Source: an uncultured delta proteobacterium (GTDB lineage: Bacteria; Desulfobacterota; Desulfomonilia; UBA1062). Taken from it: DNA of 64,000 nucleotides. Shown piece by piece: positions 9,743 through 39,484 of this stretch. Location of the stretch: assembly GCA_963752595.1 (NCBI GenBank), contig CAVVYZ010000020.1, forward strand, positions 1 through 64,000, given 5' to 3'. The notes below the pieces were generated by a model. The model worked only from the letters and a program-made list of their open reading frames with translations. It had not been told where the DNA came from and ran no database searches. The position numbers and the translations under genes were made by a program. Positions within the stretch are counted from its first letter, which is position 1. Each line of letters opens with the position of its first letter.

Positions 9743-10441
9743 TTACTCCCTCCGGCTGTCGGGCGCCTGAAGCTTGTACCCTACGCTATAGATCGAGCAG
9801 ATGATCTCCTGGTCCGGCAGCAAACCGGCGATCTTCCTGCGGAGGTTCTTTATATGGGTATCGACGGTGCGGTCGTATCCTTCGTAGTCATACCCCTGGA
9901 CCCGGTTTACCAGCTCACTACGTGAGAAGGCACGTCCGGGATTGGCCATGAGAACCCGCAGGAGTCCGAACTCGTTGGGTGTCAGTTTGAGCTCCCGGCC
10001 TTCAATGGTAACCTCGCGAGTGTCTTCTTGCAGCACGATGCTGCCCACCTTCAGCATGCTGCCTTCCAGAACGGGCTGCATGCGCCTGAGGACCGCCTTG
10101 ATACGTGCAACGACTTCCCTGGGGCTGAAAGGCTTGCACATGTAGTCGTCAGCCCCGAGCTCCAGCCCGAGGAGCCGGTCGATCTCCTCCACCCGCGCAG
10201 TGACCATGATGATGGGGATCTGGGAGGACTTTCTGATCTCCCGGCACACATCCATGCCGTCCATGCCCGGCAGCATGATGTCCAGCAGAATGAGGTCCGG
10301 TGATTTCTGCCTCAGGAAGGGTATCACCTCGTCACCCCGGCCCAGGCGAGATACGGAGCAGCCAGTCCGCTCGAGATAATCTTTCAGGAGTGCAGCGATC
10401 TTGTCTTCGTCTTCAACGATGAGTATATGCTTGGAGTTCAT
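9743..10441 (-). CDS. OmpR-family response regulator (BaeR-like)
   Basis: Receiver domain LLDIMLPGMDG, GADDYMCKPFSPREV, winged helix DRTVDTHIKNLRRK. Confidence 0.92.
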   Translation of the reverse strand: MNSKHILIVEDEDKIAALLKDYLERTGCSVSRLGRGDEVIPFLRQKSPDLILLDIMLPGMDGMDVCREIRKSSQIPIIMVTARVEEIDRLLGLELGADDYMCKPFSPREVVARIKAVLRRMQPVLEGSMLKVGSIVLQEDTREVTIEGRELKLTPNEFGLLRVLMANPGRAFSRSELVNRVQGYDYEGYDRTVDTHIKNLRRKIAGLLPDQEIICSIYSVGYKLQAPDSRRE

Positions 10442-11925
10442 ACAAAGATTACCTCTTCCTGTGAGGTCTGCCTATGCGCCGGCAGGACGATCTCGATGCG
10501 CAGGCCGCCAAGCGGTGAATGGTCCGTCCTGATCTTCCCTTCGAATGATTCCACGATGCCCTTGCAGATGGCCAGGCCCAGCCCGCTTCCATAATGCTTG
10601 CGTGACCTTGACGGGTCGATGCGGTAGAGCCTGTCGAACAGCTTGTTTAAGGATTCGTGGGGAACGCCCGGCTTGGTGTCTTCAAAAATGAGACGCAGTT
10701 CGTCTCCTTGAAACTTCCACAGGATATTCAGCTTCCCGGGTGAGTCGGTATAGTGCAGGCTGTTCTCCAGGAGGTTCGAGAAGACCTGGGCCAGACGATG
10801 GCTGTCGCCAATGATAGTGACGCCGGTATCCTGCCCGGGGGCATAGGTGAGAGTGAGAGCCTGCTCGGCAAACCTCGGAGAGAACATTTTAATGGTTTCC
10901 GTGAGCACCTTGATCACATCAACCGGCTCTTTCGTGACCGGAACCGTACCGTCATCCACCATGGAAAGCTCATGGAGGTCGTTGGCGAGCTTTTCCAGGT
11001 GTAGGACCTCGGAATAGAGCGAATCGAGACTCTTGCCGGACATTTCGCGCACACCGTCCTGAATGGCCTCGATCTCGCCCTTGAGAATGGAGAGCGGTGT
11101 CCTCAGGTCATGGGAGATGTCCGAGATGAGCTGCTTGCGAAGTATTTCATATTGTTCGAGGGTCTGGGCCATGAGGTTGAAGTTGTCGGCCAGGTGTCCC
11201 AGTTCATCGCGGGTTTTTACCTTTATCCGGGTATCGAATTTCCGTAAGGCCATGGCATGCGTCCCTTTCGTAATCCGGTCGACAGGCCTGAGAATGCTCC
11301 GTGAAAGCAGGATGGATATAAGGATGGACAGAGACAGGACCGAGCACCCGACGATGAAGAAGGTCATGGTCTGGCGGTAGAGGTATTTTTCCTCCTGCGG
11401 TGTTGTTACTCTTTCCGTTCTTTTTATCAGGCCGAGCCAGCCTACGATTTCTCCATCGACCTCGATCGGCTTCATAATCTGCTTATGCAGGGAGGCGGCC
11501 TTTCCTGCCACCACCCGTTTGTTTGCATCGTAGAGGGTTACCCTCCTCCTGATGGCCGGATAATATGTTTCCACGGGCTGAGGGCTTTTCACTTTCCCCG
11601 GGCCATTGTATCCGGGCGTCCCGCTGTTTTGATCGCCGGGGTGAAGAGGGAGCTTCGAATCACAGATTTCTTTGGGTATATCCGGGAACAGCATATCCCT
11701 GAATGCATTCGGGGGCCCTTTCACGAGTTCCCAGTCGCGGTGAATTCTGTAGGAATCCCCCAGCTTTCCTGCAAAATCATTGAACCGATCTATTTCCCAG
11801 TTGATCACGAAGTCCTTGAGCTCCTGTTTGAAGAAATGCCGCATGAGCCCCATCATCAGGATCATACTGATCATGCCCGTAAACACAAACATCAGGAAGA
11901 GCTTGTACCCAAGTTTTATCTTCAT
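10438..11925 (-). CDS. Sensor histidine kinase (BaeS-like), HAMP + HisKA + HATPase
   Basis: Two TM segments, HAMP (RDELGHLADNFN), SHDLRTPL, GSGLGLAI. Confidence 0.92.
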   Translation of the reverse strand: MKIKLGYKLFLMFVFTGMISMILMMGLMRHFFKQELKDFVINWEIDRFNDFAGKLGDSYRIHRDWELVKGPPNAFRDMLFPDIPKEICDSKLPLHPGDQNSGTPGYNGPGKVKSPQPVETYYPAIRRRVTLYDANKRVVAGKAASLHKQIMKPIEVDGEIVGWLGLIKRTERVTTPQEEKYLYRQTMTFFIVGCSVLSLSILISILLSRSILRPVDRITKGTHAMALRKFDTRIKVKTRDELGHLADNFNLMAQTLEQYEILRKQLISDISHDLRTPLSILKGEIEAIQDGVREMSGKSLDSLYSEVLHLEKLANDLHELSMVDDGTVPVTKEPVDVIKVLTETIKMFSPRFAEQALTLTYAPGQDTGVTIIGDSHRLAQVFSNLLENSLHYTDSPGKLNILWKFQGDELRLIFEDTKPGVPHESLNKLFDRLYRIDPSRSRKHYGSGLGLAICKGIVESFEGKIRTDHSPLGGLRIEIVLPAHRQTSQEEVIFV

Positions 11926-11953
11926 CTGTTCACCTGCTCGGTTTGCTTAAGAT

Positions 11954-12011
11954 AATCTTCACGATTTAACCACGATGCTTCCACTGGTTCACCATAATTA
12001 CCCGCTAGACT
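11954..12011 (+). promoter_or_regulatory. 4 x 11-bp tandem CA(C/T) box array plus -10-like TAGACT
   Basis: CA at 11960, 11971, 11982, 11993; TAGACT at 12006; same layout repeats elsewhere in the window. Confidence 0.65.
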
Positions 12012-12179
12012 TACCACACTCTGATGAGCAGGTGCATCCAAAAAATTATGAGTAAATCGGGGACGGGTTCGCATTTCAAAAAAATCAGGGCAGTTGTTGC
12101 GGATGAATCGGCTTTAAATGCGGACACGTCTCCGATTTGAAGGGCTATTCACATGAACGGCGGATCGGCCCGGGGAGAC

Positions 12180-12299: not shown

Positions 12300-13615
12300 A
12301 TGAAGAGGTTGTATGTTTCATTACTTACGCTATTTCTTGTGTTCGTTTTAGCTGTGCCTGTGTTCGCCCTGGAGAACATCTTCGGCGGCTATTGGCGTAC
12401 CCGGGCATATACCCAGAGGGATTTCACAGGCGATGATTCAGAGGCCCTGGATCTCCAGCAGGCAGACACCAGGACCCGGCTCTTCTACACGGCAAAGTTC
12501 TCCGACAACTTCAAGTTCGTCAACCAGTTCGAGATGGACGCAGTCTTCGGCGGCCCAAAAGCGGGCTATGGAGACATCGGCGCTGACGGTGTGAGTGTAG
12601 AGATAAAGAACTCGTATGTGGACTTTTCACTCGCTCCGGTCAACTTGAAGCTCGGTGTTCAGAATTACAAGATAAACAGGGGCTTTTTGTTCAGTGACGA
12701 CTTCGCAGGAGCCGTTGTTACCTATAATGTGAACAAGGACATCGAGGTGCCGTTCTTCTGGATCAAGGCAACGGAAGGATACAGCAGCAACCCCGGTTCT
12801 ACAGCCGATAGAAACAACTATGATGTCGATATCTACGGCATCTATCCCAAAGTCAAGCTGGGTTCTGTCACGGTGAGACCCACTCTCATGTGGGCCACAT
12901 CCAAGGATGCGTCATACTATGCGAATTCCTTAAGCGAATGGAAGGATCAGGGTGGGGCTGATTTTGAAAAATTCAATATGTATTACCTGGGCGCAGACGT
13001 CGATGCGAAGGTGGGACCTGCTACCGTGTGGTTCACCGGCATCTATGAGTTCGGCACCATCGAGAGCCTGGCAGGCGGAGAAGATTATGATGCAAGCGGG
13101 TATCTGCTGGCACTCGGCGCAAAGGCAGATGTGAACAATATCAACCTCCATGGCCAGACCTTCTACGCAACCGGTGACGATAATGCTGCAGACAGCGATA
13201 TCGATGGATTCATGGCACCCATCGGCCGGGGCCAGAGCTACAGGTGGGCAGAGATCATGGGCGTAGGCCCAATCTTCGATAATGATGCGTCAAACGGTTC
13301 TTCCGGCGACGAGCCGACCAATATCCTTGCAGCCAATATGGGCGTAACCGTAAAGCCCATGGAGAAGCTCGCTCTGACCGCCGACCTCTGGTGGGCACAG
13401 CTTGCAGAAGACAACCCGAACGGCGACAAGGACCTCGGCACCGAGATCGACTTCCTTGCCAATTACAAGATCCTAGACAACCTCACACTCGATGTGGTCG
13501 CTGCCTACCTCTTTGCCGGTGATGCAACCACCAAGTGGAACTATGCGGACGGCGTGGCGAAGGATGGCAATGAGAATCCCATGGAGATCGGCACCCAGCT
13601 CGTATCCAGTTCTAA
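12300..13615 (+). CDS. Outer membrane beta-barrel porin (deltaproteobacterial type)
   Basis: Signal peptide, alternating aromatic beta-strands, LGTEIDF motif; a 1-bp correction near 13605 gives C-terminal ..QF-TAA (13613-13615), typical of porins. Confidence 0.75.
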
Positions 13616-13710: not shown

Positions 13711-14136
13711 GTGAAGAGATTTTCAGGAAGAGTGTTTTTCATGGTTGCAGCATGCGCAGCTTTGGTTCTGTTCATGGGGATTTCCGCTGCCTCTGCTGCA
13801 AATGTGGGAAGCGTCAAGCCCGAGGAGCTGAAGAAGCTGCTCGAGAGCAAGGCAAACATCGTGGTTGTGGATGCACAGCCGAAAGGCGCCTATGATGTGG
13901 GCCATATCCCGGGGTCGGTCAATCTCCCCTGGATTCCGCAGATCAAGAGCCCGGGCAAACTTCCTAAGAACAAGGATCTCATTCTCTACTGTGCATGCAC
14001 CCATGACGAGGATGCAACCGACCTGGCAAACCAGCTCGTGACGAGGTTCGGTTACACCAGGGTCAAGCTGCTCGAAGGCGGCTGGCTCAAGTGGGTCGAG
14101 TTGAACTATCCCCAGGAAAAGACAAAAAAGAAATAA
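13711..14136 (+). CDS. Secreted rhodanese-like domain protein
   Basis: Signal peptide, GHIPGSVNLP, active-site loop YCACTHDEDA, LEGGWLKW. Confidence 0.85.
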   Translation: MKRFSGRVFFMVAACAALVLFMGISAASAANVGSVKPEELKKLLESKANIVVVDAQPKGAYDVGHIPGSVNLPWIPQIKSPGKLPKNKDLILYCACTHDEDATDLANQLVTRFGYTRVKLLEGGWLKWVELNYPQEKTKKK

Positions 14137-14153: not shown

Positions 14154-14801
14154 ATGAAGAAATATCTATCGATACTGGCGCTCGCGCTGGTGCTCGTGCT
14201 GCCCGCGGCCTGCTCGAAGGCCCCGGAGCAGTCGGCACAGAAGGCCGCGGGTGCCGAACAGGCCGGCCCGTACAAGGTGGGGCAGGTAAAGATGAACCCG
14301 CACCCTGCGAGCCTGGAAGGCAAGACCGTGGTGCTCAGGTGGAACGGAAAGTTCAACGGCGACAAGGTCCTCGACAGAGTGGCCGAGCTCCTCGCCCAGA
14401 AAGCTCCGGGAGTGAAGATCGTCAAACTGTGGACAGTGGATCCGGCAACAGCCAATTCATCGGAAGGGGCTGAAAATAGCCTGAAGTTTGCGGAAAGCGC
14501 TCTCTCCCAGAAACCGGATCTCGTGATCGCGGCATCTGCCGATTGAGGGCACTGCACCCCATGGCTGGTAGTTGACCAGCTCAACATTGAAAAAAAGGGC
14601 GTACCCACGGTCACCATAACGACGACGGCATTTAGCGACATGGTCAAAACGACTCTGGATGAGCAGGCTATTGCGGAGATGGCGATAGTTACAGTGGAGC
14701 ATCCCATTGCAGGCCGGAGCGCCGAGGAAACGAAAAAGTTTGCTGACGCGGAATTCCCCAAAATCTTCAAGGCTGCAACGGCATGGCAGCCCACGAAGTA
14801 G
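14154..14801 (+). CDS. UGSC-family selenoprotein 1 (short lipoprotein, D-U-G-H-C), 215 aa
   Basis: In-frame TGA 14544-14546 followed by GHCTPWLVVDQLNIEKKGVPTVTI..., open to TAG 14799-14801; lipobox LPAAC; SECIS-like hairpin. Confidence 0.85.
14564..14580 (+). promoter_or_regulatory. Putative bacterial SECIS hairpin
   Basis: GCTGGT-AGTTG-ACCAGC, loop begins 23 nt after the TGA. Confidence 0.75.
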
Positions 14802-14804: not shown

Positions 14805-15368
14805 ATGGGAGATACAGTCATGAACGCTACTAATATGGGTACAATAGAGCGGAGCACGGTGGGGAAGGGCTGGATAGGGAAGGTAGTCGGCAACGGGTAC
14901 TTGATCCTTGCCTTCCGACTGCTACTGGGTGCAACATTTATGCTGTCCGCTGTGGGCAAGCTCGTGGACATCGAGCGCTACTCGGTGGATGCTGTATACA
15001 ACTTCGCGGTCCTGCCGCTGTGGCTGGCCCGCCCGGCAGGCCTGATCATGCCGTTCATCGAGCTCGGCATCGCGCTGGGCCTCATCTTCGGGGTCCTGAC
15101 CCGGCTGTCTGCGCTCGGTGATGCGGTGTTGAGCCTGATCTTCTTCTTAGTCAAGCTGCACGTGCTCTTCATCCAGGGCAGGGCCATCGACTGCGGGTGC
15201 TTCGGCGCCATCATGACCACGATGGCCTCCGTAACCATCTACATGGACATCCCCATGCTCGTCATGGGCCTGATCATCATGTTTGCCCCGGCTTCTTCTC
15301 GTCACTGGATTTCCCTTGCCCGGTTCGTGCCTCAGAAGCTGAAGGACAAGCTGGATTTAGTCTGGTGA
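14805..15368 (+). CDS. MauE/DoxX family membrane protein
   Basis: Four or five TM segments, FMLSAVGKL, IDCGCFG motif. Confidence 0.85.
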   Translation: MGDTVMNATNMGTIERSTVGKGWIGKVVGNGYLILAFRLLLGATFMLSAVGKLVDIERYSVDAVYNFAVLPLWLARPAGLIMPFIELGIALGLIFGVLTRLSALGDAVLSLIFFLVKLHVLFIQGRAIDCGCFGAIMTTMASVTIYMDIPMLVMGLIIMFAPASSRHWISLARFVPQKLKDKLDLVW

Positions 15369-15518
15369 CGTGCGGTGACTATGCTGCGGTGACCCGGATA
15401 TAACAAATGCATAGTGAGAAGGAAGGCAAATCGTGAAGGCAAAACCACAAGATCGTGTTTGTGGGTGAGAAGCAGGGATTTTAAAATATTTTAATTAGAC
15501 GAAAGGATGGTAGGGAAA

Positions 15519-17279
15519 ATGAAGAAAAGGCAGATGTATAGTCTTACGGCTTTCATGATGATTGCCGCATGGCTCTTAATGCCGGCATGCGCCTCGGCCA
15601 AGGAGGCGGTGCAGCAATGGGAGATGGTCAATCCGGCAGGGGTGATCAAGGTTACGCATATCAAGATGGCGCCCAGGATCGATTCCCTCGAGGGAAAGAC
15701 CATAGCGCTCAAGTGGAACCAGAAACCAAATGGGAACCTCTTCCTTGACCGGATCGCAGAACTGCTCAAGGAAAAGTATCCCACCTCGAAGATCGTGAAG
15801 ATATACGAGTTGGAGCCCACGACCGTTCCCCAGAGTGCGAACGATGCAGATTCAATGCGCAAGGCCAGGCTCATTGCGAAGTACAAGCCGGATATCGTGA
15901 TCGGCGCCCAGTGCGATTGAGGGAGTTGTACATCATGGCTGGTAGGTGACCAGCTCTCAGTCGAAAAATTGGGTATTCCGACCGTAACCGTTTCAACGAA
16001 CGAGTTCATCGGGCTCGCAAGGACGAGCCAGGTAAGCTTCGGTGCTGCTGACATGGCTTTCGTCATCGTGCCCCATCCTCTGGGAATGATACCCAAGGAC
16101 GAGGTAAGAGCCAAGGCGGATGCAGCTTTTAACGACATAGTGAAGGCAGCCACAGCTTGGAAACCGAGCAGAACAACGATTCCTGGTGCCAACAAGGCCC
16201 CGTATCCTCTGGAGACGGTAAAGTTCAAGGGCACCTATGCGCAGTTGAACAAGATGTTCTATGACAACAAATGGTCCCTGGGCCTGCCCATCATCCCGCC
16301 TACGAAAGAGGCGGTAGCGAAGATGCTCAAAGGCACGACCCACAAGCCGAGCGAGATCGTCTGGGATGCCATTCCCCCGAGGAACGGCGTCGTCACGGTC
16401 GAGCTCGTTGCGGCAACAGGCGTCATGGCCGGTGCCAAACCTGAGCACATGCCCCTGCTTCTGGCCATTGTTGAGGCCATGAAGGCCACCCCGCAGAAGG
16501 GGAGGGAATGGCGCGCGCTGACCACCACGACCCACCACACGGCCCCGCTGATCATCGTGAGCGGCCCGATCGTCAAGGAGCTTGGCATCGCCTACGGCCT
16601 CGGAGCCATGGGCCCCGAGATGCCGGTGAATAACGCTGTCGGATACTTCGTCAACCTGCTCGGCGACGTGGCCGGCGGTTCCCGTCCGCCCGATGCGGAC
16701 AAGACGACCCAGGGCTGGGTGGGCAACATCATCGCCACGGTTGCAGGCGAGAACATCGACGCCAACCCGTGGAAGGAGAGCTGGCCGGTTGAGAAGGGCT
16801 TCAAACCCACCGACAACGTGGTCATCTATGCCGGCGGAGGAATCCCCGTCAACCAGAACGACCATGCCAGCGTCGATCCCAAGGACCTTGCCGAGGTCAT
16901 GGCGTATACCATGAACGCCATAGGCGTGAGCCGGTGCTTCCAGGACGGCGGCGTCTGGATGCTGGGTCCGGAGCATGCGGCAACGCTCGCCAGCAAGGGA
17001 TGGACCAAGAAGGACATCCGGGAGTTCCTCTACAAGAACGCCCGTGCACCTTACAGGGTACAGCCCGAAATGGTGGATGGGAAGTGCGCGGCAACCGCGT
17101 GCTGCCCGCCTGCCAGCTTCGGTCCGGTGACGCCCGATACCATGATACCGCTGTGCAAGAACCCGGATCAGATCGACATCGTAGTCGTAGGCGGTCCCGG
17201 TAAGCAGAGCCAGTGGTGGTCGTATACGGAGTTCGGTCCGTTCCCGCCCATCATGACGAAAGTTGACAAGTGGAAGTAG
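15519..17279 (+). CDS. UGSC-family selenoprotein 2 (C-D-U-G-S-C) fused to a large uncharacterised C-terminal domain, ~586 aa
   Basis: ORFs 15507-15920 and 15969-17279 are in the same frame, joined by TGA 15918-15920; signal peptide; SECIS-like hairpin; start could be 15507. Confidence 0.88.
15938..15954 (+). promoter_or_regulatory. Putative bacterial SECIS hairpin
   Basis: GCTGGT-AGGTG-ACCAGC; only the loop differs from the other copies. Confidence 0.75.
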
Positions 17280-18583: not shown

Positions 18584-20305
18584 ATGAGGAAGGTATTGCA
18601 GAAACATCTTCTCACATGCATCGTTCTCATGCTGATGCTCAGCCTGCCAATGCTCTCATTCGGCAAGGAGACGGCACAGAGCTGGGAACTGGTGAACCCC
18701 CAAGGGATCGTTAAGGTTGAGCCCATGAAGGTCAACCCGCACCCCGCGACCCTGGAAGGCAAGACAGTGGTGCTCCGCTGGAACGGCAAGCACAACGGCG
18801 ACAACGTTCTCAACCGTGTTGCCGAGATGCTGAACGAGCAGGTTAAAGGCGTCAAGATCATCAAGTTATGGGAAAAGTATCCCGGATACGGTGACGGTGA
18901 GCAGCAGCCAGGAAAAGAGCAAGGACATCGCGAAGAAAGTCGCTTCGTTCAAGCCCGACCTGGTCATTGCTTCACAGACCGATTGAGGGTCCTGTACCTC
19001 ATGGCTGGTAGTTGACCAGCTCAATGTCGAAAAACTGGGTATCCCCACGGTCACCATATCAAGCACCGAGTTCGTCGAGCTCGCAAGAACGACCATGCGG
19101 AGCGTCGGTGCTCCGGATATGGCATTTGCTATCGTTCCCCACCCGCTGGGAGGGATCAAACTGGATGAAATACGTGCCAAGACAACCGCCGCTTCCCGGA
19201 GATCATGAAGCTGGCAACAAAGTGGAAGGCCGAACGCCGCGAGCGTCAGCTGCGGCAAAGACGCCGTATCCTGCGGAGAGATTTACGTTCAAGGGACAGG
19301 TCCGGATGTCACCGACCTTTATTACAAGGAAAAGTGGAGTGACGGCCTGCCCATCGTTCCGCCCACAACCGATCGCGTGAAGAAGATGCTGGCCGGGACA
19401 AGCATGAAGCCGCAGTGAGGTCATCGGCATTATCCCTCCCCGCATGGGTGTTATCACGGTTGAGCTGGCAGCAGTGCATGCCGTGATGGCCGGGGCCAAG
19501 CCCGAGTATTTCCCCGTTATCTTGGCCGCGGTCAGAAGCCCTGCTCGACCCGAAGCACGACTGGCGGTCGGCAACTACGACGACAAACCCCTGTGCTCCG
19601 TTGATCGTGGTCAATGGGCCCATCGTCAAGGAGCTGGGCATCCAGTACGGAACTGGTGCATTCGGGCCCGGCCCGGCTGCAAGCCCTAACGCCACCATCG
19701 GCCGCGCCGTCAACCTCATCATGGATATCGTTGGCGGATCACAGCCCCCGTCCCCTGACAAGACCACGCTGGGGAGCCCTTTCAGCTACACCATGGTGCT
19801 GGGAGAGAACGAAGGTGCTAATCCCTGGGCCCCGCTGAACGTACAGATGGGCGCCAAGAAGGGTACGAGCACGGTCACCGTGTTCGAGGTAAGGAGCTTT
19901 ATCAACTTCAACCTCCACGAGCCCAATACCGCTGAAGGCCTGCTCCATCCGATGGCAAAGACCATTGCCCCGGTAATAGGCCTCGCCGAGAACGGGTTCG
20001 AGTGCAAGGAAGGCGTGAAGGAACTTCTCATCTTAAGCCCCGAGCACGCGGATACGATAAAGAAAGACGGCTGGGACCTTGATCGCGTCAAGAGCTATAT
20101 CCACGAGAACGCGCGCATCTCCATGGCTGACTTCAATATCCGCAACAACAACCGCAAACCGCTCTGCCGGCAGGATGAAGCCAACCCCACTGTCGTAAAA
20201 GGACCGGGGAATTATCTGATTATGGTTGCCGGCGGTGAAGGCAAGCACTCAGTCTTTCTGGAAACCACCAGATACGACCCGGTGACAAAAGAAATCAAGG
20301 AGTAG
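18584..20305 (+). CDS. UGSC-family selenoprotein 3 (T-D-U-G-S-C), long form, several frameshifts
   Basis: TGA 18984-18986 in conserved context; colinear with paralogs after correcting indels near 18882, 19190, 19300, 19410 and 19535. Confidence 0.8.
19004..19020 (+). promoter_or_regulatory. Putative bacterial SECIS hairpin
   Basis: GCTGGT-AGTTG-ACCAGC. Confidence 0.75.
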
Positions 20306-27965: not shown

Positions 27966-29168
27966 CGAGCTGGAATATCCTCCGAATGCACTCGATATGC
28001 ATGCTGTCCGGGTACTCCTTGAGAAAACTTACGGGCCTGTTCAGCAACCTTCTGATGGGAGACTGAAGCCTTTTTCTCATCACGTTCCTTTTCCCCTTCG
28101 GGAAGCGCCAGAGAACTCATCTGATCCTGCAATGTATGAATCAACGAGGGAAAACAGATCCTTAATAGTGGTCTGGGCATCCAGGGAGGAGAGCCACTTT
28201 CTCATACTTGTCCACTTCGGATTCGATGATGGATAAGGCGTTTAAAGCCTCCGCCTCCCGGTGGGAAAATGTCCTGTCAACAATGGATTTCAGTGCATCG
28301 ATATCGTAGAGATAGCAGTTGTAGCATTTCCTGCCGCCGGGTCCACGTCTCGGGGAACCGCAATATCGATGATGATGACGGGGATGGTTTTCCTGGCTTT
28401 CATAGCATTCGCTCACCATGCTTTGGTGATGATGGGATGTGGTGATCCGGTGGACGTGATGACGATATCGCTCCAGGTAAGCTCATCGGCGAGGTACTCG
28501 AACGGTCTGGCGGTTCCTCCAAGATCATGTGCAAGATCATAGGCGGTTCCGTAGGTTCTATTCGTGATGATGAGATTCTTTACCCCTCTATCCACGAGTC
28601 TCTTTGCCGCTATGCTCGCCATCTCTCCCGCACCTATAACCAGTACGCGACTGCGACTGATATCCCCGAAGACATGCGTTGCGATTTCAACAGCTTCCGA
28701 AGCTGCCGATACCGGGTACATGCCGATCTTTGTCTCGGCGCGAACCAGTTTGGAAGCCCTGAATGCCCCGTGAAGGGCCTTGTTCAGTATAATTGAAGTG
28801 GTATTGATGCGAGGGTCTCCCGGTACGAATCCTTGACCTGGCCCAGTATCTGGGGTTCCCCGATAACGAGCGAGTCAAGTCCGGAAGCCACCATGAAGAG
28901 GTGCCTACGGCTTCCCGGCCTGAAAAGTATTCGGATACCTTTTTAATGTCTCGTTGTTGATCCCGGAAAGAGCGGCCAGGAGATTATATACTGATTCTTT
29001 ACGATAGCAGTCCAGTAAACTTCGGTGCGGTTGCAGGTGTAGAGGGTAAATGACTCAGAACCTTGTTCCCATAAGGACATGCATGTCTCCGGGATCGATC
29101 CTGATCTGTTCCCGGACATCGACCGGTGCACATTTATGGTTGATGCTGATGCAGTTGATAGGGTCCAT
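27934..29168 (-). CDS. hemA: Glutamyl-tRNA reductase, heavily frameshifted (errors or pseudogene)
   Basis: [54 protein letters not shown] fragments. Confidence 0.8.
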
Positions 29169-29271: not shown

Positions 29272-30075
29272 TCAGAGATAGCTGTGCAGCCCCGGAAGGT
29301 AGTTCACCCCGAAATAGGTGAACAGAACGCTCACCAGGCCTATCAGGGAGAGCGCCGCAACCCTTCTCGTCACCCCGCCTCCCCTGATCCTCTCATGGAG
29401 CACTGCCGCATAGATGAGCCAGGTGATGAGCGCCCACGTCTCCTTCGGGTCCCAGCCCCAATATCTTCCCCACGCCATCTGGGCCCACACGGAGCCGGTG
29501 AGGATGCCCGCGGTGAAGAAGATGAATCCGATCGTCACACAACGGTAGAACGTGGTCCCCCAAAGGATTTCCCCCGGTAAGAACCCGTTGCCCCTCAGCA
29601 GAAAAATCCCGAAGACCGAAGCCACGAAGAAGGATGCATACCCAAGGAAACAGGTGATCACATGGATGGCGAGCCAGTTGCTTTTGAGCGCCGGGATCAG
29701 GGGCTGGATACTGTTTTCGACCCCGGGAGAGAAAGAGGCATATCCGAGCATCAGGGCCGCGGCAGGCAGCACAAAGGCCAGGACTTTATCCCTGGCCTGC
29801 TCTTTAACGCCGAGCAGGGCAATGAGCACCGTTGCCCAAGAAAAGAAAACCAGGGACTCATAAAAATTTGACAGGGGCACGTGCCCGATCCCATGTGCAT
29901 AGGACTCGCTCCACCGGATGATGATTCCATTCGCATGGAGCGCGAAACCGACCACAGCAATCCAGAAGGCAAGGCGGGCCATCCCCTTTTTTCCCAGGAT
30001 CAGGCCCAGGAGCAACAGGCAGAAAGCTCCGAGGTAGATATAGATGACGATGCCGATAACAGTACCGCTGCTCAT
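29272..30075 (-). CDS. ccsA: Cytochrome c biogenesis system II heme ligase CcsA/ResC
   Basis: WAQMAWGRYWGWDPKETWALITW (WWD domain), GLHSY. Confidence 0.92.
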   Translation of the reverse strand: MSSGTVIGIVIYIYLGAFCLLLLGLILGKKGMARLAFWIAVVGFALHANGIIIRWSESYAHGIGHVPLSNFYESLVFFSWATVLIALLGVKEQARDKVLAFVLPAAALMLGYASFSPGVENSIQPLIPALKSNWLAIHVITCFLGYASFFVASVFGIFLLRGNGFLPGEILWGTTFYRCVTIGFIFFTAGILTGSVWAQMAWGRYWGWDPKETWALITWLIYAAVLHERIRGGGVTRRVAALSLIGLVSVLFTYFGVNYLPGLHSYL

Positions 30076-31187
30076 ACGCTGTCTCCTTCACCCTGAGCAT
30101 ACCCTGCGGGTCCCTTTCGCGCGGCCGTATGGGAGGTGTCGGAAGCATCTCCCTTCCCCGTCTTGGGTCCCTGGCCGGTTCGGGGGACCACTAACACGAG
30201 CAGGAGGCTCACCAGGAAGAGCGCACCTCCGGCAGCCGCCACAGGAGCGCCGGGGTCGCGCTTTACCCCGATGCCGGTGGCATACGAGGCCTCCAGCTTT
30301 TCCAGCGAGAAGGTGTAGGGCCGGAAGCTCGCAGGGTCGAACCCCGGCATCTTCTCAAGGAGACCGGGCATCCGGGCCTTGATGGCGTCGATGTCCTTGA
30401 ACACCCACAGGTACCGCTCCCCTGAGGAGTCACTGATCAGGAGCTTCACTGCCGGCCCCGCGTGCATGAGATCGTCCCAGACCTTCACCACACGTGCCTG
30501 GGTGCCGGGCTGTGAAAGGGGGATGGCCTCTCCTTGCATCACCTTGAAAAACCTCTTTCTGTTGCCGACTTCAACAGACATGGATGCCGACAGGGAAGGC
30601 CGAAAGCTCTCCTGATAGAAACCGATGCCTTCGAAGCTGGCTGGATGATTGACCATCACCCTGGCCCGACCGGCAACATGACCACCTTTAAAAAACGAAA
30701 GGTTTGACACATATTCCCTGGGCATTCCACTCTTGTAATAATCCACATTGAAAGAGTCGCATCGGACAGAGAACCCGAGGTCCTGTGAGTATCCCTTTTT
30801 CACCACCGCCTTGGAAGTGCTCGTTCCCACCGGGATATCCATGAAGCCGTCCAGCTTCAAGGCGCCCAGGGCATAGCCCGCGATTATCAATACGATGCCG
30901 CCGTGCATGAGCAGCATGAGCAGGCTTCTCCTCCTGAGGTTAAGCCATCGCCTCATGCACAGAACGAGATTGACGCACAGGAGAAACCCGGCCCCCATGA
31001 ACAGGATAGAATGAAATATGTCGTACGGGGAGAGCAGGGAGAGGAGCCAGGGGGCCGGGGCATGTACACCGGATGCAGCCCCGCCCCCCTGGGGAAACAC
31101 GGTTCCGATCAGACACAGTACGACAACCAGGAGGAGGAGCGAAACCGTGAGCTTTAATGAGGAGAACACCTTGAGCATATATTTCAT
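30072..31187 (-). CDS. resB: Cytochrome c biogenesis protein ResB/CcsB
   Basis: SSLKL..IGTVFPQ, H-containing TM, VNHP..FYQ, DPG motifs. Confidence 0.88.
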   Translation of the reverse strand: MKYMLKVFSSLKLTVSLLLLVVVLCLIGTVFPQGGGAASGVHAPAPWLLSLLSPYDIFHSILFMGAGFLLCVNLVLCMRRWLNLRRRSLLMLLMHGGIVLIIAGYALGALKLDGFMDIPVGTSTSKAVVKKGYSQDLGFSVRCDSFNVDYYKSGMPREYVSNLSFFKGGHVAGRARVMVNHPASFEGIGFYQESFRPSLSASMSVEVGNRKRFFKVMQGEAIPLSQPGTQARVVKVWDDLMHAGPAVKLLISDSSGERYLWVFKDIDAIKARMPGLLEKMPGFDPASFRPYTFSLEKLEASYATGIGVKRDPGAPVAAAGGALFLVSLLLVLVVPRTGQGPKTGKGDASDTSHTAARKGPAGYAQGEGDSV

Positions 31188-31211
31188 TTCTATTCCCTTC
31201 TACCCTCGCTC

Positions 31212-33717
31212 TCACATGGCCATGAACACCGCCCAGAAGATCAGGGCGGTCAGCGAGAGGCCGAGGATCACGCTTGCGATGCCGAACACGCCTGCGAAGA
31301 GCTGGGAACCAGTGCCCGGGCCTGCGCACTTGATCTCATCGAGCCGGTTTTCCGCGAGGATGCGCTCGTACTCCAGCGGACGCTCGTCTTGAGGGCCTCG
31401 AGAGTGTACCTGCCCGTGAACACGTTCCTCTCCAGCGGGAACTTGTCCGGTACGAGATGGTTGTTGAAGAAGTGGATCGTGAAGATGAACACCGCTGCCA
31501 GGAACGCCTCCTCGGAGTGGGCCAGGTGCACGATGTTGATCATCCATCCGGGCATGAAGTACGACGAGAGCTCGGGTATCCACATGATGACCCCGGAGAG
31601 GCCGATGACGAACATGCCCCAGAATACCGCCATGAAATCGAACTTCTCCCAGTAGGTCCACCGGTCGAACTGCGGCTTCTCTCCCCGTGTTGAAGAACCA
31701 TCTGAACATGCCCAGGCAGTCCTCGATGTCCTTGAGCCGTGGGAACAGGGAGTCGGGCCCGAAGAGCCTTCCCACCCATCCCTTGACCTTGAAGCTGGGA
31801 ACAGGAATTTGAGCGACAGCCAGCAGGTGTACAGGAACAGGGCGCACATGGCAGCCGCGCTGATGCGGTGCACGAGTGCCGCGCCCGCTGGCGCCTCCCA
31901 TCAGGGCCATGAATGCCTTTGCCCACGAGGCGTCGGTGTACTTGATCGGGAACCCCGAGATCACCACGCCGAAGAAGGAGAGGATGAGCACCACGTGCAT
32001 GACCCTTTCCCGCATACCGAACCTTCTCACATACTGACATCCCTGGTCTTCAGGAAGCTCATGCTTCGCTTCCAGGCCTCCCTTGATCAGGCAGCTCTTT
32101 TCCGCATATGCCTTGCGCCACCAGAGGAGCGAGTGGGCCCAGAAGAAGAGGAACACCCCTGCCAGGAGCGCGATCATGAACTTCTTGGCCAGGTACAGCC
32201 CCAGGAACCCCTTCGGGTCTTCCGGGTCAGGGTGGGCCACGTACGACACGAAACGGGGATGAAATCCCTCGTGGCACTTCCCGCACGTCTCTACCAGAGT
32301 TTGAGGGTTCAGGGCGGAAGCGGGGTCGTTCGCGGGCAGGATGTTGTGGGCAAGGTGGCAGTCCGCGCAGCCCGCAACCTTATCGGGGTATCCGAGGGCC
32401 ATCGCCTTGCCGTGATAGGTCTCTCCGTATGCACTGACCGCCATGGGGAACACCCCGTAGCGGCCTGCCCCGCCCCCTTCCTTGTGGCACGAGATGCACA
32501 GGTTGGTGTAGTACTCCCGCTTGTCGGCCATGCCCTTGTCCGTGGAGGCAAAGACAGGCGTATTGTGGGTGCCGTGGCAGTCACTGCACGAAGCGGCATC
32601 CTTGTTTCCCGCCAGGACCTTCGCCACATGCCCCTTCATCACGTACTTGTCCTTGTCGCTGTGGCACTTCAGGCAGGCAGCGATCCCCGAGGCCTTGCCG
32701 CTCGCGGCCTTCACGGCCTCTTCGGGGTGGATATCGGTGTGGCAGTTGCAGACACGAGAGCTTCGCTTTCACCGCGTGGAAGCTCTTCGAGTATTTCTTC
32801 TCGATATCCTGGTGGCATACACCGCAGGAGGTGAGCGCTGGCTTCTGCTGCTTCTTCATGTGCAGGGCGAGGTCCGTTATGCCGCTATGGCAGACGGTGC
32901 AGCTCAATTTCCCATGGAATGTCTGCGCAAAAGGCTTCTCATATTTTGGTCCGGAGTGGCACGAAGTGCAGTCTGCAATCGAGAGTGCGGGTCCCTGAGG
33001 GGCAGGGGCCGCTTTAGGCTTCAGGATCTTTGGTGCCGGGGCCTCCCGAGGATGGATGCCGGCGTGGCACTGGGCGCAGGAGAACTTCTTCACGGTCGCG
33101 TGGAACCCCTGCTTCTGAATGTCCTTGTGGCAGGTGAGGCAGGATGCCGTCTCGACCGGCTCGGCCCCCCGCATGTGCTTCGAAATCTCGGTCACACCCT
33201 TGTGGCAGACGGAGCACTGAAGCGCCGCGTGCTTCGTCTGGGAAAAATACTTCCCGTACTCGGGCTTGGAGTGGCACGCCGTGCAGTTCGGCGCAATGCC
33301 CGCCGCTTTAGCCGGGGCGGCTTTGCCCGAAGCTGCAGGAGTTTTCGCATCGGAAGCCTTGCCGGGGGCTGAGCCCGCTTTGACTTCTGTTTCCTTGCCG
33401 GGAGTCTCCGGCGCCTTCGATTTTTGCGGATCGCCCGAGAGCATCTGCTTGTGGATCGCGAGGAACTTGTCGGAAAGGGAGATCTTGCCCTGTCCATGGC
33501 ACATCTGACATTGCATCATCGTCATGCCCTTCGTATCCGGATGGGTTTCCGGAAGAACCTTGGCGACGTCAGCATGACAGGCCGTACAGTCTCCCGGCTT
33601 TTGACCGGGGCCCGCCATCACTATTGAACTCCAAAAGAGTATAGCGATGCAAAGGATGAGGGAGAGGATGAAATACGTTGAAAGATGCCTTAACTGAGAG
33701 TGCATGTCTATACCCAT
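31212..33717 (-). CDS. Multiheme cytochrome c fused to C-terminal cytochrome b domain (CbcL-like), frameshifted
   Basis: 14 intact CxxCH plus one broken by a frameshift near 32750; membrane domain with FDRWTYWEKFDFMAVFWG and HSEEAFLA..IHFF. Confidence 0.85.
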
Positions 33718-34221: not shown

Positions 34222-34567
34222 CCCCGCAGCTTGCTGCGAGAGGGAGTGAGTGATAGAGCGGATGAGTGAGCATATATCTCCACAAGAGTCATAATGTATC
34301 GGTATTACTCTACCATATAGTATGTCCTGCGAAATATCGAAGGGTGGTATTTTCTGAAGAAGTAGACAATGCATTGAAGAAGGCGTTGTGGGGTGGCGAA
34401 TTTTGGATAGATGGATATTATATCAACACGGTCAGCAGGCATGGGAATGAGGATGTTGTCCGCCAATATGTAGAAGGGCAGGGCAAAAAGGAAGAGTATA
34501 AAAGGCTTCATAGTGAGCAGGTACGATTGTTCTAGGCACCGGATACCCCGCAGCTTGCTGCGGGGTA
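34222..34567 (+). mobile_element. Non-autonomous IS200/IS605 remnant (tnpA with central deletion)
   Basis: HKSHNVSVLLYHIVCPAKYRR joined directly to LWGGEFW..GY..YVEGQ without the HUH motif; flanking CCCCGCAGC-TT-GCTGCG hairpins. Confidence 0.85.
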
Positions 34568-34903: not shown

Positions 34904-34951
34904 CCAAATTAAGGTCCTCCGCCTCTCATCGGGCGGGGGGACCTTGTAGGG

Positions 34952-35091
34952 CGCCCGAACCGGGCACGGAGTTTGGGAAAAAAACAGGAAGGAAGGAGTT
35001 CACCAATGAAAAGATCGATGAAAGGTTTTCTGGGACTGGCCGTTTTGGGTTTCCTGGTCATGTCCCTGCCCGCTTTCGCCAAGGAAGCGGT
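34952..35091 (+). repeat. 140-bp near-identical direct repeat, copy B
   Basis: Matches 20377-20516. Confidence 0.9.
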
Positions 35092-36757
35092 GAGGGAATG
35101 GGAGATCGTCAACCCGCAGGGAACGATCGCCATCAAGGAGATCAAGCTCGCCCCGCGGCTGACGACGCTGGAGGGAAAGACGATCGTCCTGCGCTGGAAC
35201 GGCAAGCACAACGGGGACAACTACCTCAACCGCGTCGCGGAGCTGCTGGCGGAAAAGGTTCCGAGCGCCAAGGTCATCAAGGTCTATGAGCTGGACAAGT
35301 CGACCATCAAGATAAGCAGCTCCAATGCCGAGTCGGAAAGGATCGCGGGCGTGATCAAGGGGCTGAAGGCGGACCTCGTCATCGCCTCGCAGGCCGATTG
35401 AGGGTCCTGCACCTCATGGCTGATAGTTGATCAGTCCAATTGCGAAAAATTAGGAATCCCGACCGTTACCGTTACCACCGATGCATTTATCTCGCTTTCC
35501 CGGGCAAGCGGTGAGAGCATCGGCCTGGCCGATATGGCCTTTGTCGAAGCCAAGCACCCGATGGGCATGCTGCCGCTGGCAGAAATCCGAGCCCGTGCGG
35601 ATGAAACCTTCAACGACATCATTCAGAAGGCGATTCACTGGAAGCCTTCACGGACCTCTATTGCCGGCCTGGGGAAAGCTCCCTACCCGGCCCCGCGGGT
35701 CAAATTCAAGGGGACCTACGCGGCCCTGAACAAGATGTTCTACGACCAGAAGTGGTCGCTGGGCATGCCGATCATCCCGCCGACCCCCGAAGCCGTGGCA
35801 GCCATGCTGAAAGGCACCACCCTTAAACCCGGCGAGGTCGTCTGGATTGTGCCTCCACGGATGGGTCAGTTGACCGTCGAGCTGGCAGCCACGATAGGAG
35901 TGATGGCAGGCTGCAAGCCGGAGCATATGCCCCTGCTGCTGGCTATGGTGAAGGGCTTCAGCAATTCGGACTTCGACTGGCGCGGCTCCACGACGACTAC
36001 GGGCCCGACGGTTCCGATCGTGGTCATCAACGGCCCGATCATCGACGAGCTGGGAATCGGCTACGGGACCGGCGTCTTTGGCGGTGAGCACCCGGTGAAC
36101 ATCGCCCTGGGTTACTTCGTGAACCTGGTCGGGGATATCGTCGGCGGATCCGTCGCCCCAGATCCGGACAAGAGCACCCATGGGACGAGGGCCGATATTT
36201 CCGCCCTGGTTATAGCCGAAAACGAAAAGGCAAACCCCTGGAAGCAGAGCTACGCCGTGGAAAAAGGCTTCAAGCCCACGGACAACGTAGTTTCCGTTTT
36301 CTCGGGCTATTCGGGCAACAACAACGTGGACCATACGAGCACGACGGGTAAGGCCCTCCTCGACACGATCTCCTTCGGGCTGGCCGGCGCCGCCTCGGGT
36401 ATCACGAGCTGCTTTACCGATCTTGACAAACCGTACAGCCCGGGCAATTCGGTGAGGTTCGCCTTCATTTTCCTCGGACCCGAGCATGCGGCTACCGTGT
36501 TCACCGATTTCAAGACCAAGCAGGCCGCCGAGGAGTACGTGGTCAAGAGGGCCGTGGGCCCCAATTGGACCTATGCGCCCAATCGGTGCGTTCCTCCGAA
36601 GGATTTCGGGCCGGTCAACGCCGATACGATGCTTCCCCGCTTCACGAATGCGAAACAGATCCACATCGCGGTCACGGGAGGTCCGGGAAAACAGACACAG
36701 TTGTTCCCTTCGTTCGTGACGAATAAGCGGGTCGTCTCGGTCGTCGTCGATAAGTAA
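35006..36757 (+). CDS. UGSC-family selenoprotein 5 (A-D-U-G-S-C), long form, ~583 aa
   Basis: TGA 35399-35401 in frame with both flanking ORFs; signal peptide; SECIS-like hairpin with compensatory change. Confidence 0.88.
35419..35435 (+). promoter_or_regulatory. Putative bacterial SECIS hairpin (covariant copy)
   Basis: GCTGAT-AGTTG-ATCAGT: G-C to A-U pair swap and G-C to G-U relative to other copies. Confidence 0.78.
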
Positions 36758-36869: not shown

Positions 36870-37799
36870 TCAGAGATCCTGCAGGATCTCGGCCTTTTTC
36901 TTTTCGTACTCTTCCTTCGTGATCAGGCCCTTCCCATAGATGTCCTTCAGCGTATCGAGCCTCTTTTCAATCGAATCGGCCTTCGAGACACCGATGCCCT
37001 TTTGGTCTTTGCCCGAAACCTGTTCGCCGGCAGCGGGGTCCGCATACCTGGATGTGACATCGACCGGGCCTTCAGGATTCAGGAAGCGCACGGCGCGAAA
37101 GCTCCTCTCGGTGAAATCATCGAGCAGGCGCTGCTGCCCCGGGGAAGGCTTCCCGATATCGAGGCATTCGCCGCAGGCAAGGCCGGCGCATGTCAGGGAG
37201 ACATCCTCGAAATAATAGATAAGTGCCCGTGCTTTGCCCCCGAAGCCTTCCTTCTTTGCGAGCTGTTTGACCAGGAAGCAGGAGGGAATATCGGCTTTCT
37301 TCAGGAGCAGATCCTTTTCCTCTTTCGTGAAGACGTTCTGATCGAGATAGAGGTCATAGCGGTACTCTTCTTCAAGGATCTTCACCTTGCCTGATTCCAG
37401 TGTGCTTAAGGGTTGTATCTCCCTTAAAAAATTTTTCTGCGCCTCCTGATTGGGGTCTCCTGCGGCTACCATGACCCGTATGATGATTCCCCTTGTGAGG
37501 CTGTTGTCCGGGCCGGATTGAGCGAACAGATAGGTGGCGGCGTCAAAGTTACTTTCGGTCGAGTCTCCCGCAGAGGTTGCAGGGCCTCTCTCTTCCTTGT
37601 CTGCCTGAACGCTTCCCAGGTAGGCGAGACTATCGCTTACCTTGATCCTGAGACTGGGAAAGGAGCTGGAAAACATATTGTTTTCGACATCTCTCCTTAC
37701 CTGGAACTCTTTGAGGCTTTTCTCCATGCTGCTGCACCCGGAGAGAAACAGAAGTACGATGACCGATGTCACGAAATATGCTGTCCCGATTTTCATCAT
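36870..37799 (-). CDS. Lipoprotein with C-terminal SHOCT domain
   Basis: Lipobox LSGC; LKDIYGKGLITKEEYEKKKAEIL. Confidence 0.75.
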   Translation of the reverse strand: MMKIGTAYFVTSVIVLLFLSGCSSMEKSLKEFQVRRDVENNMFSSSFPSLRIKVSDSLAYLGSVQADKEERGPATSAGDSTESNFDAATYLFAQSGPDNSLTRGIIIRVMVAAGDPNQEAQKNFLREIQPLSTLESGKVKILEEEYRYDLYLDQNVFTKEEKDLLLKKADIPSCFLVKQLAKKEGFGGKARALIYYFEDVSLTCAGLACGECLDIGKPSPGQQRLLDDFTERSFRAVRFLNPEGPVDVTSRYADPAAGEQVSGKDQKGIGVSKADSIEKRLDTLKDIYGKGLITKEEYEKKKAEILQDL

Positions 37800-37997
37800 A
37801 TATCACCTTCACTTTTTATCGAATTCGGATGGAAAGGATATTAGATTCTCACTTAAGGATGCGGTCTTCCTGACCTGGGCCGTCAAGTGAGAGCAGCGTC
37901 ATAGTACGGCTCGGCGGTCTTTCCCGTCAAGCATTATTCCTCCCATTGCGCATGCACTGCCTGCGGGATGGAAACGGCGCCCCGGGCCACAGGAAAG

Positions 37998-38056
37998 AAT
38001 CTCCTCAAAAACCTCACAGATCATCCATAATTTCTTCAAAATCGTGGAGTAATACT
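37998..38056 (+). promoter_or_regulatory. 4 x 11-bp box array upstream of the Tat paralog
   Basis: AATCTCCTCAA-AAACCTCACAG-ATCATCCATAA-TTTCTTCAAAA; boxes at 38004, 38015, 38026, 38037. Confidence 0.65.
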
Positions 38057-38191
38057 TTTCATACCCAACATAAAGCCTCCTATAATTCTCTTCGACAAAC
38101 TTCTTCTTCCCTTCTGCCCATCGAAGAGAAGAAGAAGTTTGAGTTTATGGTCAGGAGAACAGGATATGGGGGAAAGGATATATACACGGCC

Positions 38192-39484
38192 ATGATAACG
38201 CGAAGGAATATGCTCAAAGGGCTTTTCGCCGGCGTATCGACACTTCCGGTACTAGTGCCGCAGCTGAGGGCAGATACCGGCGACGAGGAATCTGTGTGGA
38301 TCTATAACCCTGCAGGGATCACACAGAACGGCGTCTTTGTCGACGAGATGCTCAGGAAGGGGACGCAGGAGAAAGAGGGCGGGAAATTTCCTCTGACCGG
38401 AGATTTCCCCCACCTCAGCATCGAGTGCATCGAAACAAAAGATGCGTTCGCAACGGTCAACAGGATCTTCTCCCTGCGCGGCTGGGCGGACGGGCTGCCC
38501 ATTGTACCCCCTGACGAGGACAAGGTCAGGAAGATGCTGAAATGCACGGACATGGGGCCGGATGAAGTCATCGGAATCATAGAACCCATGAAAGGGCAGG
38601 CTACGGTGACGAAGGTGGCGGTGAACGCCGTTATGGCGGGCTGCCGTCCCGAGCACCTGCCCGTAGTGATCGCTGCGGTGCGGGTGATTGCCGATCCCGA
38701 TTTCAGCCTCCTTGGGATATCCACGACCACCAACCCCGATACCCCCATGATCATCGTAAACGGCCCCATTGCACGGCAGCTGGACATCAATTCCGGCACC
38801 AATGCCCTCGGGAGAGGCTGGGAGGCCAATGCGACAATCGGGAGGGCGCTCCATCTCGTTGCCCAGAACATCGGCGGGAGCCGGCCCGGAGTTACCGACA
38901 TGTCGTGCCTGGGCCAGCCCGGGGAGTTCGCCATGTGCCTGGCGGAAAACGAGGAGAAGAACCCGTGGGGGCCGCTGCACGTAGAACTCGGATATCGAAA
39001 AGACGCCAATGTCGTGTCGGTAGTCGCTGCAGAAGGAATCCACTCAATCCTCGGCATCGGTTGGGACGACGAAGGCTACTTAAGCCTGGTAGCCGACCAC
39101 CTGGCCAACCTGGACAGGTCGTCGAGGCCGGTGGTCCTGCTGATCATTGCACAGGACACGGCAGCCATGCTTGCACGGAAGGGATGGACGAAAGACAAGA
39201 TCCGAAAGTACATCTACGAGCATGCCCGCCTTCCTTTCCAGAAGTACAAGAAACGGTTCATCGATACCCGGAAGGTTCATGGAGTGCCGGAGTGGGTCCT
39301 CAAGAATACCGACCCCGAGGCCATGATCCCCGTGCCGTTCATGAACCATCTCGTCATTTTAGTGGCGGGAGGCACAGGTGAGAAGAGTATGCTCATTCCC
39401 GTGTGGGCAGGCACGAAAAAAGTGATTTCACAGGAGATAAGGACCCCTTCGGACTGGAAAGATATCCTAAAAAAGACTGATTAA
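38192..39484 (+). CDS. Tat-exported homolog of the UGSC-associated C-terminal domain, lacking the Sec domain
   Basis: ITRRNMLK Tat motif; WADGLPIVPP, NAVMAGCRPEHLP, IVNGP, ANATIGRA, ENEE..PW motifs. Confidence 0.8.
   Translation: MITRRNMLKGLFAGVSTLPVLVPQLRADTGDEESVWIYNPAGITQNGVFVDEMLRKGTQEKEGGKFPLTGDFPHLSIECIETKDAFATVNRIFSLRGWADGLPIVPPDEDKVRKMLKCTDMGPDEVIGIIEPMKGQATVTKVAVNAVMAGCRPEHLPVVIAAVRVIADPDFSLLGISTTTNPDTPMIIVNGPIARQLDINSGTNALGRGWEANATIGRALHLVAQNIGGSRPGVTDMSCLGQPGEFAMCLAENEEKNPWGPLHVELGYRKDANVVSVVAAEGIHSILGIGWDDEGYLSLVADHLANLDRSSRPVVLLIIAQDTAAMLARKGWTKDKIRKYIYEHARLPFQKYKKRFIDTRKVHGVPEWVLKNTDPEAMIPVPFMNHLVILVAGGTGEKSMLIPVWAGTKKVISQEIRTPSDWKDILKKTD

Follow-up and report, generated by a model that had tools for sequence, protein, structure and literature searches.

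A MauE-linked cassette of exported UGSC selenoproteins beside a probably separate cytochrome block in a mosaic region of an uncultured delta proteobacterium

Selenoproteins of the UGSC family contain a selenocysteine (Sec) domain whose fusion to an unnamed domain is already recorded in PMC2398784, and the family is of unknown or largely uncharacterised function according to PMC1976440 and PMC13188914. Concerning MauE, a 2026 preprint (bioRxiv 10.64898/2026.03.05.709764) describes two such proteins, one of them from Thermodesulfobacteriota, which replace DsbB in Escherichia coli and for which CXC is required; quinone binding is predicted for MauE in the same source. Members of both families lie together in the stretch analysed here, a 64-kb window (contig CAVVYZ010000020.1, positions 1 to 64,000) of the genome of an uncultured delta proteobacterium, hereafter G000. 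Relative genomes and loci bear G and L labels, C labels denote contigs of G000, and the five UGSC-family Sec genes of the window are numbered U1 to U5 in order of position. An earlier note had read positions 9743 to 39484 as a candidate complete periplasmic Sec-dependent reduction or detoxification system. Its observations were partly confirmed, its system-level interpretation was mostly not borne out, and the lasting finding is a smaller, MauE-linked cassette of exported selenoproteins. No description of a UGSC-MauE-rhodanese cassette was found in the literature covered, which did not include Haft and Tolstoy 2025, a study of selenoprotein neighbourhoods that may bear on it.

The conserved unit consists of a CxC rhodanese, a short UGxC selenoprotein, MauE and exported two-domain UGSC fusions. 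On the forward strand of the window, its conserved core is made of an exported, NF041203-like single-domain rhodanese with a CxC motif (LYCAC; 13711..14136), U1, a short lipoprotein with the UGSC domain only and the Sec motif UGHC (14154..14801, TGA at 14544), and a MauE with CGCFG and conserved Lys and Glu (14805..15368). They are followed by U2, exported and intact, in which the UGSC Sec domain is fused to the unnamed C-domain (15507..17279, +, TGA at 15918). The MauE scores 66.6 bits against PF07291 (cut-off 27), with DCGCFG, GKL and IELG in its translation, while a second, more distant MauE (35%) is found on C5 of the same genome.

The neighbourhoods of 198 other UGSC loci were surveyed, i.e. 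118 genome loci (78 from GTDB and 40 hand-picked from the phylum) and 80 metagenome loci, the latter retrieved with the short, U1-type Sec protein as sole query. Flanks extended to 10 kb at most, many contigs were short, and duplicates were retained in the counts (L040 is the same as L150, L041 is the contig of G296, and L210 is nearly identical to G011). Among the 80 metagenome loci, 69 have the rhodanese, 50 MauE and 41 the C-domain, and Sec is encoded in 75; the rhodanese lies directly upstream of the short protein in 53 of the 58 loci with room for it. For the 32 metagenome loci of at least 5 kb, the corresponding numbers are 31, 25 and 27, all three being present in 23, and for the 26 clusters obtained at 80% identity they are 21, 20 and 14, respectively. 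CxC is retained in 67 of 71 rhodanese matches, the remaining four without the motif being probably partial, and CxCF in 44 of 51 MauE matches, the other seven being partial. The cassette also occurs twice, in the same gene order, in G161, which belongs to another family. As for the close MauE matches in 400 phylum genomes, three out of five lie beside UGSC genes, one beside a rhodanese at a contig end and one alone. The grouping of the rhodanese, MauE and the short Sec lipoprotein with the Sec enzymes, as in the earlier note, is thus upheld by the metagenome neighbourhoods.

Several further gene arrangements around UGSC genes were also seen. In G004 (L015:4494-5642) and in the metagenome contig L211, MauE is followed by an additional rhodanese and by a short paralog that lacks Sec and has DGDRC as its motif, the latter being shared by at least six database proteins. 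In G011, open reading frames located a few genes downstream of the cassette (L017:4021-6442) resemble cytochrome bd oxidase subunits. In L151-L153, from three genomes of one family, an exported UGAC fusion is accompanied by a redoxin-like gene and stands back to back with a PhsA-like molybdoenzyme operon with a twin-arginine translocation (Tat) signal, and four acidobacterial loci (L068, L073, L077 and L086) combine a UGSC fusion with a rhodanese (~54% identical to that of the window), a redoxin, pyrroloquinoline quinone dehydrogenases and diheme cytochromes.

All five Sec proteins match PF24696 with 87-131 bits (cut-off 25) and NF041046 with 90-123 bits, slightly below its cut-off of 125, U being read as C. 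By such profile matches U1-U5 are assigned to the UGSC family, as is the window MauE to the MauE family. PF24696 is present in three of the 41 genomes searched, G000, G004 and G011. A signal-peptide sequence was seen in each of U1-U5, the long fusions U2-U5 having the Sec motif UGSC, and no CxxCH heme motif was found in any of the five. Their in-frame TGA is followed, ~16 nucleotides (nt) downstream, by an identical hairpin resembling a selenocysteine insertion sequence, with a paired change in U5, and G000 encodes selA, selB and tRNA-Sec; from the TGA, the hairpin and this machinery, U1-U5 are predicted to be decoded as selenoproteins. Besides U1 and U2, they include U3, an exported Sec fusion with seven frameshifts relative to an intact, 90%-identical ortholog in G004 (18584..20305, +, TGA at 18984), U4, an exported-type Sec fusion (20431..22188, +, TGA at 20836), and U5, an intact exported Sec fusion (35006..36757, +, TGA at 35399). 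U4 and U5 have a 176-nt leader in common, 91% identical between the two, and the closest homologs of U5 (80-82%, in L250 and L267) come after MauE, not after a cytochrome. A partial U3 copy made of C-domain pieces with internal deletions (22364..22962, +) represents real decay.

The structure of U2 was predicted with a mean confidence (pLDDT) of 90. The model of its Sec domain (residues 29-192) has flavodoxin- or Rossmann-like proteins as best matches (Z 9-11.6, root mean square deviation ~3, 115-157 residues aligned); thioredoxins are not among the best matches listed, which does not exclude a thioredoxin fold. When 97 UGSC sequences were compared with six GrdB/PrdB sequences by hhalign, the Sec domains aligned over 115 columns with U on U (probability 96.8%, E 2.6e-10), and on this alignment they are considered homologous. 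Concerning the C-domain (pLDDT 91), no clear fold match was obtained (best Z 5.7), nor any significant sequence match in the PDB, and its Atlas clusters are unannotated, which does not establish a new fold. Class I fumarases are its best Foldseek matches, albeit weak ones (E 3.5e-4, template modelling score 0.22-0.24, Z 4.5-4.7), so that the likeness, seen in a model, is a lead only. A large protein family is made up of exported C-domain-only members sharing an N-terminal YNPAG motif, of which 6036 were hits out of 8000 scored; its signal peptides are of both the Tat and the ordinary type, and the Tat-signal paralog of the window (38192..39484, +), without a Sec domain, belongs to it. The earlier description of five Sec proteins and a Sec-less paralog therefore stands, as does that of an exported, multi-paralog panel, judging from the signal-peptide sequences.

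Every gene named in the earlier note is present, but not in one island. G004 is syntenic across the window at 81-85%, but there position 20306 is joined directly to 36869; the intervening 16.5 kb (20307-36868) is missing from the corresponding position in G004, as well as in G011 and L211. This variable block starts with U4 and ends with U5, and holds between them the U3 stub, tetraheme cytochrome, flavoprotein, hemC, hemA, ccsA, resB and multiheme cytochrome genes and insertion sequence (IS) remnants. None of the 78 GTDB, 40 phylum and 80 metagenome loci had the multiheme, tetraheme, ResB, HemA or HemC near its UGSC gene, and weak matches were obtained to the flavoprotein in two of the 198 loci (27-30%) and to CcsA in one (31%). 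The multiheme gene was matched over at least 1.2 kb in ten of 40 relatives, eight of which have no UGSC gene; in the other two, G004 and G011, the multiheme and UGSC genes are on separate contigs. Opposite strands, IS remnants and GC contents from 0.475 to 0.61 indicate piecemeal assembly. It is highly probable that the region is a mosaic, in which the cytochrome block is separate from the conserved Sec cassette.

These observations bear directly on the single system put forward in the earlier note, where electrons would pass from quinol to the multiheme and then, via a flavocytochrome or U1, to the panel of Sec enzymes. As a general system, this chain is refuted, by the earlier note's own criterion, through the lack of co-occurrence in other UGSC loci (0/118 and 0/80 for the multiheme, tetraheme, ResB, HemA and HemC), in a comparison in which the rhodanese-U1-MauE cassette does recur. 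For G000 itself we regard it as very unlikely, even though all its parts are adjacent there, U4 and U5 with their shared 176-nt leader bracket the block, short-read contigs from one study, possibly of the source sample, cover pieces of both blocks at 95-100% identity, and the Geobacter ext cluster, as presented in PMC5877670, unites a rhodanese, a porin, a Sec protein and cytochromes. In addition to the block missing from syntenic relatives and the signs of piecemeal assembly, the multiheme possesses its own terminal partner and the UGSC proteins have no CxxCH to take one-electron transfers. The part of the chain leading from quinol through the multiheme and tetraheme to the flavoprotein does appear coherent; that it delivers electrons to the Sec enzymes within a single complete system is unsupported.

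Within the block, the forward strand carries an exported tetraheme cytochrome c (23591..23947) and a Tat-signal flavoprotein of the Fcc3/UrdA family with one frameshift near 24087 (24008..25572). The reverse strand carries a second hemA and a second hemC, both with frameshifts in the assembly (26995..29168), intact ResB and CcsA for system II cytochrome c maturation (29272..31187), and a 15-heme cytochrome c with a putative membrane domain (31212..33717), which shows five frameshifts relative to its 74%-identical G011 ortholog; another hemA-hemC pair is on C9 and another ResB-CcsA pair on C17. Fourteen CxxCH motifs of the multiheme lie in open frames and one at a frameshift, and the G004 and G011 orthologs carry 15, in agreement with the ~15-heme fusion of the earlier note. 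Its C-terminal half is hydrophobic and His-bearing, but frameshifted and without a profile match; the protein is classed as CbcL-type by its N-terminal CxxCH motifs, its membrane domain being putative. The flavoprotein matches both Fcc3 and UrdA at E ~1e-43, with 236 bits against TIGR01813 vs. a cut-off of 285. The HH and GANR stretches of Fcc3, which we take to be its fumarate-site residues, align to PS and ESSYR and are thus lost, making fumarate an unlikely acceptor; with these stretches not kept and TIGR01813 below cut-off, identity with the Fcc3 fumarate reductase was ruled out. The neighbours of the multiheme in relatives are either a Tat molybdoenzyme operon (G001, G002 and G004) or a flavoprotein (G001, G010, G020 and G022). 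Since in G001, G010 and G022 the multiheme contains a tetraheme homolog within the same protein, with a flavoprotein gene adjoining, the three genes are considered a coherent unit, and their sequences point to a quinol-fed periplasmic reductase that is real as a unit.

Mobile and repeated DNA was also noted in the block. A remnant of an IS200-type transposase is found at 34266..34535 (+), and one short-read contig skips 34238-34543, which may be due to a strain difference or to another copy of the element's ends. A probable IS remnant occupies 25640-26850, its last 263 nt having a 99% copy on C30; the one open reading frame tested there gave no Pfam match. A non-coding repeat of ~250 nt (73-79%) is present at both ends of the block (23056-23331 and 34651-34899) and nowhere else in the genome.

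As regards function, the window MauE has the features of the tested DsbB-like oxidases, from which electrons are inferred to run from the UxxC pairs of the long enzymes to U1 and/or the rhodanese, then to MauE and to quinone. The opposite direction, from quinol to the Sec enzymes, was assumed in the earlier note and is the less likely one, since the tested MauE activity is oxidative. With a probability of about 55%, we favour a reading of the cassette as a DsbB/DsbA-like relay, which would carry electrons from periplasmic Sec/Cys pairs to the quinone pool, the cytochrome block being separate. The long fusions would be substrate-specific enzymes, with Sec as nucleophile in a pocket shared with the C-domain; their UxxC pair (together, perhaps, with structural disulfides) would be re-oxidised by way of the short UGxC protein, the CxC rhodanese or both; and the CGC loop of MauE would oxidise these in turn before reducing quinone. 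The cytochrome block would be a quinol-to-periplasm terminal reductase with its own maturation and heme genes, placed between two extra Sec genes and sharing at most the quinone pool with the cassette.

The same genes could form a folding set, in which MauE, the rhodanese and the short UGxC protein make structural disulfides or selenylsulfides once in the long enzymes, without catalytic electrons, the long enzymes being maybe redox-neutral, of the lyase or hydrolase type. In this respect, the C-domain has a Cys pair in eight of 21 fusions with a signal-like N-terminus vs. one of 21 without (a heuristic count, confounded by kinship), but the pair is absent from the other 13 exported fusions. 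The commonest motif of the short proteins is U/C-G-H-C (34/80), matching the CGHC of protein disulfide isomerase; that Sec is retained in 75 of the 80 suggests, on the other hand, a high turnover. Neighbouring genes often encode catabolic enzymes and carboxylate transporters, and class I fumarases head the Foldseek list of the C-domain, at Z values of 4.5-4.7 only. The preprint cited above presents MauE as a general disulfide-forming protein, but G000 has its other MauE for general folding. On balance, a purely structural role is judged unlikely.

Alternatively, the cassette might work reductively, with membrane electrons, from MauE running backwards or from another donor, passing through U1 to Sec enzymes that cleave C-N, C-S or S-S bonds of periplasmic compounds, the cytochrome block still being separate. 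The homology of the Sec domain to that of GrdB/PrdB (with the role of PrdB as stated in PMC13188914), the oxidoreductase neighbours of non-exported UGSC members, and the redoxin-like gene beside exported fusions in L151, L153 and the four acidobacterial loci are consistent with it. However, no PF07355 gene was found in G000, and the reduction of a thiol/selenol pair by quinol is energetically uphill. A reductase role of MauE was proposed by a study cited in the MauE preprint (bioRxiv 10.64898/2026.03.05.709764), whereas the MauE proteins tested there are oxidising. We consider this reductive scheme decidedly unlikely.

Several points nevertheless count against the oxidative relay. The direction of MauE is known for two other proteins, in E. 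coli, from a preprint, which itself cites the proposal of MauE as a reductase; GrdB and PrdB, homologous in the Sec domain, are reductases; and a family of flavin adenine dinucleotide-dependent pyridine-nucleotide-disulfide oxidoreductases is near UGSC genes in eight of 80 mostly non-exported loci. MauE is near only four of the 18 closest genome loci with exported fusions (two of the 18 being one contig), many exported fusions without a nearby MauE are set among transporters and catabolic enzymes, and the 80 metagenome loci fall into four clusters at 70%. As for the separateness of the cytochromes, a distant linkage could escape the survey, given flanks of at most 10 kb, many short contigs and a distance of 16 kb from U1 to the multiheme in the window; the multiheme is in trans in G004, G011 and four of five other genomes tested; two of the Sec genes, U4 and U5, belong to the variable block itself; and a molybdoenzyme is near UGSC genes in eight of 118 genome and four of 80 metagenome loci.

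A further extension, somewhat unlikely at present, would make the cassette a selenium-based respiratory input, of the DsbA/DsbB type, whose exported UGSC enzymes with their uncharacterised C-domain would oxidise organic, probably sulfur-bearing, periplasmic compounds and supply quinone by way of the CxC rhodanese, the Sec lipoprotein and MauE, the added multiheme-flavoprotein sink closing a periplasmic redox loop. If true, it would give a role in energy metabolism to an orphan selenoprotein family that ranks among the most abundant. The relay, if true, would give MauE a partner type other than DsbA/MauD. The MauE link provides a small testable unit with a predicted direction of electron flow for UGSC proteins, and the cytochrome block is unsuitable as an argument for their reductive role.

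Numerous genes are frameshifted as assembled: relative to orthologs, seven events were counted in U3, five in the multiheme, one each in the DUF6282 and flavoprotein genes and nine in a neighbouring transporter, with several each in hemA and hemC. The problem is genome-wide, since 33 of 112 orthologs common to G000 and G004 are frameshifted (65 frameshifts over the 125 kb compared), and both EF-Tu copies are broken (G000:C20:148150-149500 and 164300-165650), which makes the gene calls of this assembly unreliable. At 17770, 27431 and 28084, where slips were predicted from orthologs, the extra base is absent in near-identical short-read contigs (single contigs of depth 2-5, all from one study). 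A decaying island was ruled out as the main cause on these three grounds. Most frameshifts look like assembly errors, and the U3, multiheme, DUF6282, flavoprotein, hemA, hemC and transporter genes were treated as probably intact. A TAG at 20506, within the signal peptide of U4 and uncovered by the short-read pieces listed, may be a sequence error or a real stop.

Upstream of the cassette, a BaeS/BaeR-like two-component pair (9743..11925, -) is divergent from the operon of a porin which resembles DESULF_POR1 below its cut-off and has frame slips in its last codons (12300..13615, +). Both had been counted among the parts of the system, but they are tied to the cassette in close relatives only: the porin was found in none of the 118 genome loci, and porin plus sensor kinase in two of 80 metagenome loci, both from close relatives. 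Outside the cassette lies a resistance-nodulation-division (RND) pump comprising OEP, an HlyD adaptor and the transporter split by nine frameshifts (4208..9731, +); similar pumps are found in G001, G012 and G022, all without UGSC. Between U2 and U3, a DUF6282 protein has a Tat signal and one frameshift near 17770, absent from a short-read contig (17500..18499, +). It corresponds to the former 'Tat hydrolase', of which the Tat signal stands; 'hydrolase' is based solely on weak amidohydrolase-fold matches (phosphotriesterase, E 1e-5), and no PDB match was found for the protein. DUF6282 is near UGSC genes in nine of 118 genome and three of 80 metagenome loci. Downstream of the variable block, a lipoprotein with a SHOCT domain (36870..37799, -) occupies the same site in G004 and L211 and is absent in G011. 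Further on, 39526-50643, syntenic in G004, holds pentapeptide-repeat and FapA-like genes, then methyltransferase, B12 radical SAM, glycosyltransferase and MMPL genes, and a class A RNase P RNA (58326-58706, -) is the sole Rfam match in the window. A promoter and terminator scan of 11.9-26 kb remained at chance level.

Compared with known systems, the multiheme shares with the CbcL/MtrH/MtoC quinol oxidases an N-terminal multiheme region and probably a membrane domain, its 15 hemes falling within the range of 3-23 reported in PMC6295460. The flavocytochrome c reductases Fcc3 and UrdA differ from the window, where tetraheme and flavoprotein are separate genes. The Geobacter extHIJKLMNOPQS/MccSep polysulfide reductase likewise has a rhodanese, a porin, a Sec protein and cytochromes in one envelope neighbourhood; its Sec, however, is on a pentaheme protein and the cytochrome linkage is conserved (PMC5877670, PMC13510729). 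Membership of this group was ruled out for the window, there being no CxxCH in U1-U5 and a cytochrome linkage in none of the 198 loci.

With GrdB and PrdB, the window proteins have in common the Sec domain, with UxxC and then E-x-x-G-I-P-T-V. Those enzymes act with other subunits in Stickland metabolism, whereas in the window the Sec domain occurs in exported proteins, joined to a C-domain of unrelated type. The PF07355 region ahead of the Sec motif has no match in G000 or the window proteins, by which identity with GrdB/PrdB proper was ruled out. As in the DsbB-DsbA and MauE-MauD pathway, a MauE with CGC-FG, Lys and Glu stands beside exported two-thiol partners, but these are a CxC rhodanese and a GrdB-like Sec protein instead of thioredoxin-fold DsbA or MauD, and the window showed no genes for methylamine dehydrogenase. 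Finally, the window proteins are like the UGSC family (PF24696/NF041046) in their domain and UxxC motif; the fold supposed in the relevant passage of PMC2398784 was thioredoxin-like, vs. the flavodoxin- or Rossmann-like best matches of the model, and the members in the window differ further in being exported, in having several paralogs and in their linkage with MauE and a CxC rhodanese.

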